Source: a virus (taxonomy: Duplodnaviria; Heunggongvirae; Uroviricota; Caudoviricetes). From it: a stretch of 18,376 bases of DNA. The translations under genes and the position numbers were made by a program. The stretch is from IMG/VR virus record IMGVR_UViG_2695420859_000010. One strand, given 5' to 3'. Under the pieces are notes generated by a model that searched no databases, was not told the origin of the DNA, and saw only the letters and a program-made list of their open reading frames with translations. Below are positions 11,362 through 12,116 of this stretch, piece by piece (the stretch's first letter is position 1; the number at the start of each line of letters is the position of its first letter).

Positions 11362-11386
11362 CCCCGCCGCGTGCGGGTTTTTTATT
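11362..11386 (+). terminator. Terminator-like hairpin plus T-tract immediately upstream of the major tail gene RBS
   Basis: CCCGC-CGCGT-GCGGG stem-loop followed by TTTTTTATTA, then TCAGGAGGC and ATG at 11400; a T-rich run also precedes it. Confidence 0.4.
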
Positions 11387-11399
11387 ATCAGGAGGCAGA

Positions 11400-12116
11400 A
11401 TGTCTGCTTTGTATGAACGCTCACAGCTGACGCAGGTGATGATTTCATCTGCCCCGGCGACTGCTGAAACTATGGATAAGGCGGAATATCTGCGCCTGGA
11501 CTGCACCATCAAGGAAGTCCAGTTCACCGCCGGTCAGAAACAGGATATTGATGTGACCACGCTCTGCTCCACAGAGCAGGAGAACATCAACGGTCTGGGG
11601 GCGTCGTCTGAGATTTCCATGTCGGGTAATTTTTATCTGAATCAGGCCCAGAACGCCCTGCGTGATGCCTATGACAATGACGCGTTGTATGCGTTTAAGG
11701 TGCTGTTTCCGTCCGGTAAGGGCTTTAAGTTCCTGGCGGAAGTGCGTCAGCACACCTGGTCATCCGGTACCAACGGCGTGGTGGCAGCAACGTTTTCACT
11801 GCGTATGAAAGGCAAACCGGTGTCCTTTGTGGTACCGCTGGCGTTTGTGAAAAATCTGGATAAAACACTTACCGTGAATACAGGTGCGCTGCTGACAATG
11901 TCAGTCAGTGCCAACGGGGGAACGCCGCCGTATAAATACGCCTGGAAGAAGGATGGTCAGCCGGTTGACGGGCAGACGACAGACACCTTCAGTAAGCCAG
12001 GTGCGCAGTCCGCTGATGCGGGGAAATATACCTGCGTGGTGACCGATTCGGCAGAGAAAGCACAGAGTGTGACGTCTGTTGAATGCACCGTGACAGTGAG
12101 CGCAGCCGCCGGATAA
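11400..12116 (+). CDS. Major tail (tube) protein with C-terminal Ig-like domain
   Basis: 238-aa ORF with very strong RBS, just upstream of the chaperone and tape measure genes. C-terminal about 80 aa has Ig-like hallmarks (PPYKYAWKKDGQPVDG ... AGKYTCVVTD). Confidence 0.8.
   Translation: MSALYERSQLTQVMISSAPATAETMDKAEYLRLDCTIKEVQFTAGQKQDIDVTTLCSTEQENINGLGASSEISMSGNFYLNQAQNALRDAYDNDALYAFKVLFPSGKGFKFLAEVRQHTWSSGTNGVVAATFSLRMKGKPVSFVVPLAFVKNLDKTLTVNTGALLTMSVSANGGTPPYKYAWKKDGQPVDGQTTDTFSKPGAQSADAGKYTCVVTDSAEKAQSVTSVECTVTVSAAAG

Follow-up and report, generated by a model that had tools for sequence, protein, structure and literature searches.

What does a terminator-like hairpin do directly in front of the start codon of a gene whose product is needed in large amounts? 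The question is raised by a 66-nt gap (11334-11399) between the tail-terminator and major tail genes of a lambdoid/HK97-like E. coli prophage, here called the window, an 18,376-nt stretch of DNA analysed over its whole length. Phage 2851, which is 98.9% identical to the window across 10900-12200, carries a Q-like antiterminator gene on the same strand 17 kb upstream, and the interval holds stx, lysis, head and tail genes. The gene upstream of the gap overlaps the preceding gene by 4 nt and ends with a TGA stop codon at 11331-11333; an identical copy of it bears the PGAP name "tail completion protein gp17". The major tail protein consists of an N-terminal tube domain, 80% identical to the HK106 major tail subunit, and a C-terminal Ig-like domain, and the HK106 record labels its own subunit as similar to that of HK97. 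The initial annotation had described a cassette of hairpin, T-tract and Shine-Dalgarno (SD) sequence in this gap. The cassette occupies the 3' half of the gap, and every feature attributed to it is indeed present, as set out below.

10989-11333, + strand: tail terminator/tail completion gene, HK97 gp11-like (phrog_347 tail terminator, E = 2.1e-17)
11320-11336, + strand: weak hairpin AGGTCAC-GGT-GTGACTT over the stop codon (-6.3 kcal/mol)
11334-11350, + strand: T-rich run CTTTTTCTTTTTTTCTA, from reading of the sequence
11334-11362, + strand: spacer without G, made up of the polymorphic T-rich run 11334-11350 followed by CA-rich ACAAAACCCATAC
11363-11377, + strand: terminator-type hairpin with CCCGC (11363-11367), loop CGCGT (11368-11372) and GCGGG (11373-11377)
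11378-11383, + strand: T6 tract immediately adjoining the stem, candidate U-tract
11384-11399, + strand: translation initiation region of the major tail gene, with ATTATC (11384-11389), AGGAGG (11390-11395) and the spacer CAGA ahead of the ATG at 11400
11400-12116, + strand: major tail protein gene (phrog_158, E = 1.7e-116)

The hairpin at 11363-11377, with five G-C pairs closing a loop of 5 nt (-8.5 kcal/mol), lies at the short end of the range for intrinsic terminators, whose G+C-rich stems of about 5-14 pairs enclose a short loop. The U-tract expected right after the stem on the transcribed strand is supplied by the T6 at 11378-11383, which would also form, in read-through mRNA, a U-rich stretch directly 5' of the SD. 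In the predicted fold a second hairpin covers AGGAGG and the start codon (GGAGGCAGA-AUG-UCUGCUUU), and the U-run remains single-stranded between both hairpins. An alternative pairing, of AAAACCC (11352-11358) with GGGUUUU (11375-11381), is predicted at -9.9 kcal/mol. The weak hairpin over the stop codon of the upstream gene occurs in variants, one with a compensated stem (GATCAC..GTGATC) and another with a broken 3' arm (GTGTAAT), and was not found in other genera; it is probably lineage-specific and incidental.

The bare terminator-like pattern is no more frequent in the window than expected by chance. A simple scan found 16 such sites, against 15.5 +/- 4.0 in shuffled sequences, and the local fold energy at the element is unremarkable (z = -0.74). 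It is position and conservation that exceed chance. Under a stricter definition, three of the five sense-strand matches in the structural operon sit within the 244 intergenic nucleotides of its 14,124 nt (1.7% of the operon; binomial P = 5e-5). The tail element had been presented as the second copy of a cassette, and an earlier copy does lie ahead of the major head gene. A near copy of the 21-mer GGTTTTTTATTATCAGGAGGC, with 2 mismatches, is found there, and two matches were obtained in none of 200 shuffles. The present analysis found a further cassette, absent from the initial annotation, ahead of the tape-measure gene. The related elements elsewhere in the window are as follows.

5255-5296, + strand: cassette 1, after the large terminase gene and ahead of the protease/major-head fusion gene, with GAACCGC-TCCG-GCGGTTT (5255-5272), a T-run, ATTTTC, AGGAGG (5283-5288) and GTG at 5294
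7246-7267, + strand: stable hairpin without a T-run, directly 3' of the major head gene (-18.9 kcal/mol)
12819-12860, + strand: cassette 3, after the G-T tail chaperone gene and ahead of the tape-measure gene, with AACCGC-TGAG-GCGGTT, T7, ACGCCC, GGAG and ATG at 12858

The major head gene is thus bracketed by cassette 1 and the 7246-7267 hairpin. Neighbouring low-copy genes have 4-nt overlaps; the major head, major tail and tape-measure genes are each preceded by a gap bearing a cassette. Across 79 loci related to cassette 1 the core of the stem is the same throughout and the loop reads TCCG, TGCG or TGTG. This comparison covers shallow variation only, the protease-capsid fusion head being limited, in the phage collection used, to the E. 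coli Stx-like group, with relatives outside it below 40% identity.

Comparison of homologous major tail genes reaches considerably deeper. A GC hairpin with an adjoining T-run is kept in 60 of 62 distinct upstream sequences, drawn from relatives with 28-100% protein identity that range from Escherichia to Salinicola; the source genera also include Klebsiella, Raoultella, Enterobacter, Kosakonia, Serratia, Pectobacterium, Symbiopectobacterium, Brenneria, Phytobacter, Buttiauxella, Leclercia and Providencia. The same GC stem and T-run were present in all six further phages, namely HK97, HK106, ECP1, Burkholderia phiE125, Bordetella PHB09 and Vibrio Pm34. Because a MAFFT alignment of 25 elements placed stems of different register in different columns, pairs were counted instead with a script of our own anchored on the T-run. 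Thirty distinct stem/loop combinations were recorded, comprising 10 different stems (for example CCCGC/GCGGG, CCGCC/GGCGG, GCTGC/GCAGC and CCACC/GGTGG) and 23 different loops. All 10 stems have a standard pair at every position, with changes on both sides at four of the five positions. Pairs preserved through two-sided changes are, as far as sequence comparison can tell, the mark of a structure maintained by selection.

The surroundings of the stem are similarly constrained. In each of 39 distinct contexts, 5-8 of the 8 nt following the stem are T. The distance from the 3' end of the stem to the start codon is 19-26 nt (commonest 22-23 nt), and the 18-nt spacers 5' of the stem contain 6% G among 45 distinct relatives. 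The SD is GGAG(G/A) in most relatives, 6-9 nt ahead of the ATG, and AGGAA in the Providencia and Vibrio copies. These comparisons make the hairpin/T-run/SD arrangement a well-supported case of a real structure, conserved from E. coli to Burkholderia, Bordetella and Vibrio phages. Exceptions among the loci read are L057, with unrelated upstream sequence next to the ATG, and L185, with a deletion that extends from the T-run to the ATG. A further locus (L015), near a contig end, has a different sequence 5' of the hairpin and was not counted as evidence for a mosaic junction.

Given this structure, the balance of probability tips modestly towards a one-directional, sense-strand Rho-independent terminator, one of several hairpins that punctuate a Q-antiterminated late operon. 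The placement between genes on the coding strand, the GC stem and the directly adjoining T6 all point to a terminator. The GC hairpin would form in the transcript of polymerase unmodified by the phage Q antiterminator, arriving by read-through from the late promoter in the lysogen or by stray transcription from the head genes. The transcript would then be released in the U-run 11378-11383, just 5' of the tail ribosome-binding site, leaving the tail genes silent. Upon induction, Q-modified polymerase would pass the hairpin and keep transcribing. Where transcription reads through, the hairpin and U-run lie in the mRNA at a fixed distance of about 22 nt before the ATG and may delimit, on the 5' side, a strong initiation site that works on its own, whose U-rich stretch and AGGAGG would allow the most abundant tail protein to be translated uncoupled from the low-abundance upstream gene. 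From the observed anatomy, strand asymmetry, position, deep conservation with compensatory stems and presence of a Q gene upstream in a near-identical phage, we infer termination, its suppression by Q, and the insulating and translational roles. With a hairpin as short and only moderately stable as this one, termination may be partial. The proposal of the initial annotation that the element may insulate the tail genes while the phage is a prophage is compatible with everything seen and forms part of this explanation. No promoter-like site was detected on the + strand anywhere in the window, so that no stray transcription to insulate from has been identified, except for leakage through the late-promoter terminator.

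The strand asymmetry bears directly on the further suggestion that the T-rich run upstream of the stem would let the element halt polymerase arriving from both sides. That part of the proposal fails, since the upstream T-run of the + strand is read on the - strand as an A-run, lying 3' of the hairpin, and therefore cannot act as a U-tract there. The - strand RNA would read CCCGC ACGCG GCGGG GUAUGGGUUUUGUAG, in which the hairpin is followed by GUAUGGG and then by four U only, and neither the simple nor the stricter scan returned a - strand site at this position. The pairing of AAAACCC with GGGUUUU does provide a short A-run upstream of the stem, of the kind that a two-way terminator would carry, in the window's own copy. 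Among the 39 distinct contexts, though, the 8 nt before the stem hold just 2-4 A, against the 5-8 T after it, so the mirrored A-tract of a bidirectional terminator is missing, and no relative has a U-tract on the - strand. The upstream T-run itself differs in length from one E. coli copy to another (T5CT6, T5CT7, T5CT8 or a single T6) and was absent from the homologous gaps read in Klebsiella, Enterobacter, Serratia, Pectobacterium, Providencia, HK97, Burkholderia and others; neither it nor the AAAA is kept beyond the E. coli lineage. As there is also no convergent gene, and no - strand open reading frame with a family match ending here, two-way termination appears very improbable. Hardly more credit can be given to the view that termination here frees an RNA that binds Hfq and derives from the 3' end of the preceding gene, after the manner of the small RNAs that EHEC prophages of the present type are known to encode (PMC4104026, PMC13502914). 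A U-rich stretch and a terminator hairpin with a U-tail do resemble the 3' module of Hfq-dependent small RNAs, and there is a weak match to the Rfam family isrK (18.2 bits, E = 0.05). That match, however, is well under the 50-bit threshold, needs insertions of 19 and 26 nt and aligns the terminator alone, and a search of the whole window against Rfam 15 gave nothing at the gathering threshold. Nor do any of the orphan Hfq-binding sites of Sakai (EcOnc01a to EcOnc64) fall in the homologous gap of prophage Sp12 (near NC_002695.2 2224798-2224862, with the hairpin at 2224820-2224834 on the minus strand), the nearest listed sites in Sp12 being about 9 kb away after correction for version.1 coordinates, which run about 128 nt lower. 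The U-rich stretch is not conserved, and no promoter-like site lies upstream on the + strand. Two named candidates were discarded. HnrS (EcOnc10-12), a multicopy prophage small RNA of 66 nt, was tested because the gap has the same length; its sequence is absent from the window, and by the coordinates in the Tree 2014 supplement it lies in Sakai Sp12 on the opposite strand, with the Rz gene on one side and the small-terminase gene on the other. EcOnc35 of prophage Sp4 does not correspond to cassette 1, the Sp4 late region being different and rearranged. StxS at tR', IsrK of Gifsy-1 and HnrS/EcOnc10-12 are all short RNAs that end at intrinsic terminators in the late regions of enterobacterial prophages (PMC7547250, PMC4825925, PMC13502914); unlike them, the present locus has no promoter, Hfq site or family match.

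Terminators placed before the major tail and major head genes make sense only if read-through is efficient, and this keeps alive two readings in which the element acts on the message rather than on polymerase. Possible, if not likely, is a role for the hairpins as stabilisers of late-mRNA segments that act mainly after transcription, by blocking 3'-to-5' exonucleases where the upstream segment ends. Cleavage by RNase E in the G-free spacer would in addition give the tail-gene segment a protective stem-loop at its 5' end, and heavily used messages would outlast the rest of the polycistronic RNA, an outcome that would be compatible with termination too. The arrangement of the hairpins, which flank the two structural genes with the most abundant products, fits such a role. 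Those at 5255-5272 and 7246-7267 bracket the major head gene, those at 11363-11377 and 12819-12834 bracket the major tail and G/G-T chaperone genes, and HK97 shows the same bracketing, by 3309-3335 and 5192-5213 around protease plus capsid and by 6692-6719 and 7443-7462 around gp12. The 7246-7267 hairpin of the window and the HK97 hairpin at 7443-7462 lack a usable T-run and so cannot be ordinary terminators, and the spacer 5' of the stem is rich in A, C and U, poor in G and prone to single-strandedness. Pure stability, on the other hand, needs no adjoining T-run, which is nevertheless kept in every one of the 39 distinct contexts, and the hairpin lies upstream, not downstream, of the gene that needs most message. 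We regard it as unlikely that the hairpin and U-run chiefly make an efficient, uncoupled initiation site, in which the hairpin would fence off upstream RNA and the U-run would serve as a standby or protein S1-binding platform that opens the SD/AUG hairpin. In keeping with this reading, the distance from stem to ATG is tightly held, with spacings of 21-24 nt at cassettes 1 and 3 of the window and at three further HK97 cassettes; the predicted hairpin over the SD and AUG leaves the U-run single-stranded, and analogous small AUG hairpins can form from different sequences in the Klebsiella and HK97/Enterobacter lineages. The cassettes ahead of the major head and major tail genes also stand where the highest copy numbers are needed. 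Yet the same cassette precedes the tape-measure gene, whose product is of low copy number, the AUG hairpin is lacking in several lineages (L090, L103 and L106), and a GC stem with an adjoining T-run is specifically a signature of termination rather than of translational enhancers. As for the fixed spacing, it may be no more than the tightest packing of a terminator and a ribosome-binding site.

Unlikely, too, is the combined proposal that hairpin, U-run and SD were selected as a dual-purpose module, at once a conditional stop for unmodified polymerase and a standby platform at fixed distance that opens the SD/AUG hairpin and so lets the major tail (and head) proteins be translated uncoupled and at a very high rate. 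Were this true, the 21-24-nt spacing, the G-free CA-rich spacer and the bracketing hairpins would together be one expression device of HK97-like phages. The practical weight of the element is small. What the analysis of the preferred terminator does is sharpen a question: why should an antiterminated operon keep terminators about 22 nt before the start codons of its most highly expressed genes? The element is present in 1245 of 5426 complete E. coli genomes (about a quarter), in up to 8 copies per genome and including Shiga-toxin phages, so that existing Term-seq and RNA-seq data from EHEC could provide an answer.

An analogous bracketing by stem-loops, around the cistron with the highest expression in a polycistronic RNA, is found outside the lambdoid phages. 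The major capsid gene of T7 is flanked by hairpins (RNase III sites and T-phi), and papBA and malEFG carry intercistronic stabilisers. T7 differs in its polymerase and processing enzymes, and its terminator follows the abundant gene, whereas the present one precedes it. Closer in kind are the terminators of lambdoid late operons, lambda tR' and those downstream of it: the element likewise looks like a coding-strand intrinsic terminator in a Q-dependent late operon, to judge from the Q gene of phage 2851. Q-modified polymerase ignores terminators in lambda, phage 82 and phage 21. Lambda tR' is a regulatory switch directly after the late promoter, whereas in phage 2851 the site considered here follows the Q gene at a distance of 17 kb. 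To our knowledge the lambda U and V genes, which are about 10 nt apart, have no such hairpin between them. Our literature search on terminators within HK97-like or lambdoid late operons found no experimental work on the present site.

The closest counterparts are in HK97 and HK106, where the same well-known type of phage operon already has its predicted terminators marked. Between gp11 and gp12, HK97 (NC_002167) has 6692-6719 annotated as "terminator, putative", and HK106 (NC_019768) has 6645-6670 annotated as "rho-independent terminator" between the same two genes; the HK97 entry, which is of long standing, had been overlooked in the initial annotation. Both phages also have an annotated terminator directly 5' of the tape-measure gene, as at cassette 3, and another at the place equivalent to 7246-7267. 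The terminator before the HK97 tape-measure gene follows the moron gp15, in contrast to the window gap. The window element does not fit a moron-associated terminator, which would follow an inserted extra gene transcribed from a promoter of its own; the 66-nt gap has no open reading frame, and no + strand promoter-like site was found. The head modules differ, that of the window phage encoding a protease-capsid fusion. Like its counterparts, the window element lies on the coding strand between homologous tail-terminator and major tail subunit genes, just 5' of the ribosome-binding site, and it shares with them the order of CA-rich spacer, GC hairpin, T-run, (C)AGGAG and ATG. The HK97 site, AACGAACCCGCC-AGAT-GGCGGGTTTTCTTTTTCCAGGAGACAGCTATG, has a stem one pair longer and in another register (CCCGCC/GGCGGG), another loop and, unlike the window, no T-rich run 3' of the upstream stop codon. 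By gene order and layout, then, the window element is the orthologue of the putative gp11|gp12 terminator of HK97, and in this sense an ordinary, already annotated feature, one more predicted terminator. The HK97 annotation is, we presume, itself a prediction, and the comparative data lift it from "putative" to a well-supported conserved RNA structure.

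The element belongs to a lambdoid, HK97-like prophage of E. coli. The window covers the late region of that prophage, in which PHROG searches identified the following genes, in order:

14-547, endolysin
1029-1502, Rz spanin
3009-3572, small terminase
3569-5230, large terminase
5294-7231, protease/major-head fusion
7443-8807 and 8804-9865, portal gene, split
9862-10992, head-tail adaptors
10989-11333, tail terminator
11400-12116, major tail protein with Ig-like domain
up to 12810, tail chaperones G and G-T
12858-16100, tape-measure protein
3' of the tape-measure gene, in listed order, minor tail proteins

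Over positions 10900-12200, Enterobacteria phage PPyecE_EH1910 is 99.7% identical to the window, and several Stx1a-converting phages and phages 2851 and YYZ-2008 are about 99% identical. Of 5426 complete E. coli genomes, 1245 contain the 501 nt around the element, a single genome having as many as 8 copies. At 7443-9865 the portal gene is broken into two ORFs (454 and 353 aa) and falls about 157 nt short of its intact 2580-nt counterpart in Sakai prophage Sp12. In E. coli S1-IND-01-A, with 100% identity to the window over 11150-11650, this gene carries a frameshift annotation. The prophage of the window is probably defective.

Direct reading of the sequence recovered every feature that the initial annotation had described before the major tail gene, at the same positions:

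11331-11333, stop codon of the upstream gene
11334-11399, intergenic gap of 66 nt
11334-11350, T-rich run CTTTTTCTTTTTTTCTA
11363-11377, hairpin CCCGC / CGCGT / GCGGG
11378-11383, T6 tract
11390-11395, Shine-Dalgarno (SD) sequence AGGAGG, preceded by ATTATC
11400, major tail start ATG

A bare terminator-like pattern is weak evidence: a generic terminator scan of the window gave 16 sites against 15.5 +/- 4.0 in shuffled sequence, no excess, and the 111-nt local fold at the element is not unusual (z = -0.74). The position of such cassettes in the structural operon is nevertheless not random, with 3 of the 5 sense-strand matches of a strict scan falling within 244 intergenic nt, or 1.7% of the operon (P = 5e-5), and chance is an unlikely explanation of the element.

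Homologues of the major tail gene were collected from IMG/VR, GTDB (one genome per species), distant-homologue contigs and GenBank phages. A GC-rich stem abutting a T-run, followed by a GGAG-type SD and a start codon, was found in 60 of 62 distinct upstream sequences; the two exceptions (related sequences L057 and L185) look like rearranged or deleted copies. The layout recurs in HK97, HK106, ECP1, Burkholderia phiE125, Bordetella PHB09 and Vibrio Pm34, with AGGAA as SD in the last and in Providencia copies. Protein identity of the homologues extends down to 28%, and the most distant with upstream DNA compared are at 34-37%. Altogether 10 different stems and 23 different loops occur among relatives; the stems differ in sequence but remain paired (CCCGC/GCGGG, CCGCC/GGCGG, CCCGGC/GCCGGG, GCTGC/GCAGC, CCACC/GGTGG, GCCGCC/GGCGGC), with both-sided changes at 4 of 5 positions; the distance from the 3' end of the stem to the ATG is 19-26 nt, mostly 22-23 nt. 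The spacer between upstream stop codon and stem (11334-11362 in the window; L085-L193 among the related sequences) is CA-rich with hardly any G in every lineage (base fractions over 45 distinct spacers: A 0.40, C 0.34, G 0.06, T 0.20). In Klebsiella phages it contains CCAAT/AATCC pentamer repeats of varying copy number (e.g. L166, L128).

The initial annotation had further proposed that the upstream T-rich run could allow termination in both directions, which is not supported and, in view of the strand asymmetry, unlikely. That run is an A-run on the minus strand, where the bases following the hairpin are GUAUGGGUUUUGUAG; neither of two scans called a minus-strand terminator at the element; and all relatives have just 2-4 A among the 8 nt preceding the stem, against 5-8 T in the 8 nt following it. 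The element thus reads as one-directional throughout. The length of the T-rich run itself differs between E. coli copies (T5CT6 to T5CT8), and the run is absent from the homologous gaps of the other genera compared. A weak hairpin at 11320-11336, spanning the stop codon, is similarly lineage-specific. Together with the T-rich run (11320-11350) it looks like a second, weak terminator, possible only on untranslated RNA; E. coli variants of this hairpin include one compensated stem (GATCAC..GTGATC) and one broken stem. Compared with the element, a far stronger candidate for bidirectional termination is the symmetric hairpin AAAACCCCGTTTG-TTGGCAC-CAAGCGGGGTTTT (638-670, -18.9 kcal/mol) downstream of the endolysin gene, preceded by an A-run and followed by a T-run. 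The endolysin and Rz genes lie about 480 nt apart, with no gene assigned between them.

A role as small RNA source is likewise unlikely. The Hfq-dependent sRNA HnrS (EcOnc10-12), represented in Sakai prophage Sp12 by EcOnc10 (related sequence L081, 1868-1934), is encoded between the genes for Rz and the small terminase, opposite in strand to the late genes. Its sequence is absent from the window, which rules out identity with the element; on the minus strand of 1502-3009 the window does have the neighbouring small ORF (2126-2371), similar to the Sakai gene adjoining HnrS. No Hfq peak is listed at the homologous gap of Sp12 (published coordinates refer to NC_002695.1, whose numbering differs by about 128 nt from that of NC_002695.2), and a match to the sRNA family isrK was sub-threshold, with only the terminator aligned.

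Two sister cassettes precede other structural genes:

5255-5272, hairpin GAACCGC-TCCG-GCGGTTT of cassette 1, then T-run, ATTTTC, AGGAGG and GTG start (5294) of the major head gene
12819-12860, cassette 3, in a 47-nt gap: AACCGC-TGAG-GCGGTT (12819-12834), T7, GGAG and ATG (12858) of the tape-measure gene

Cassette 1 had been claimed earlier and is indeed present; it has a 21-mer in common with the element (2 mismatches), reproduced in 0 of 200 shuffles. The ATG at 5292 runs straight into TGA (ATGTGA), so that the overlapping GTG at 5294, 5 nt downstream of AGGAGG, is the real head-gene start. Cassette 3 had been overlooked and was found in the stricter scan. In the remaining large gap, just 3' of the major head gene, a strong hairpin without T-run, ACGGGAGGC-GTGC-GCCTCCCGT (7246-7267, -18.9 kcal/mol), brackets this gene together with cassette 1; the HK97 and HK106 records have an annotated terminator at the equivalent position.

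Judged from sequence, a GC stem conserved together with the T-run that abuts it is the specific signature of intrinsic termination, and not one expected of a simple stabiliser or an enhancer of translation; the combination persists even in the GC-rich phages of Burkholderia and Bordetella. In lambdoid phages the late operon is transcribed after induction by terminator-resistant polymerase, and in the near-identical phage 2851 a gene for a Q-type antiterminator lies 17 kb upstream in the same orientation. Polymerase lacking Q would be stopped at the hairpin, leaving the tail genes silent in the lysogen, and the hairpin would be overridden during lytic growth. Fixed about 22 nt before the ATG, it may also delimit, on the upstream side, a strong and independent initiation site for the major tail protein, of which far more is needed than of the products of the upstream, translationally coupled genes. 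On balance we lean towards this combination of conditional terminator and boundary; the initial interpretation is partly supported, in that a sense-strand terminator and insulation of the tail operon are plausible. Stabilisation of mRNA segments, compatible with termination, is suggested by the bracketing of cistrons and by hairpins without T-run, and is a less likely, tentative reading. The constant stem-to-ATG spacing could point to a translation or standby module, also compatible with termination and less likely still. Such a module is also favoured by a predicted small hairpin (11388-11410) in which codons 2-4 (UCUGCUUU) can pair with AGGAGG plus the GCAGA spacer, placing the AUG in a 3-nt loop. 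At the homologous positions of L062-L186, analogous small hairpins around the AUG are formed by different sequences in the Klebsiella (GCUG..CAGC) and HK97/Enterobacter (AGACA..UGUCU) lineages, though not in every lineage.

The HK97 reference record carries a "terminator, putative" at 6692-6719, between gp11 and gp12, which is the orthologous site; further annotated ones precede the protease gene, the tape-measure gene and gene I or follow the capsid gene and gp12. In the HK106 record these sites are labelled "rho-independent terminator". As a putative terminator of HK97-type late operons the element has thus been annotated before, and its novelty is low; what remains of interest is why terminators stand so precisely before the most highly expressed late genes. 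The HK97 terminator before the tape-measure gene follows the moron gp15, whereas the window has no extra gene at that place. HK97 and the window are alike in that hairpins bracket abundant cistrons, namely that of the head protein and that of the major tail protein, the latter alone or with its chaperones.
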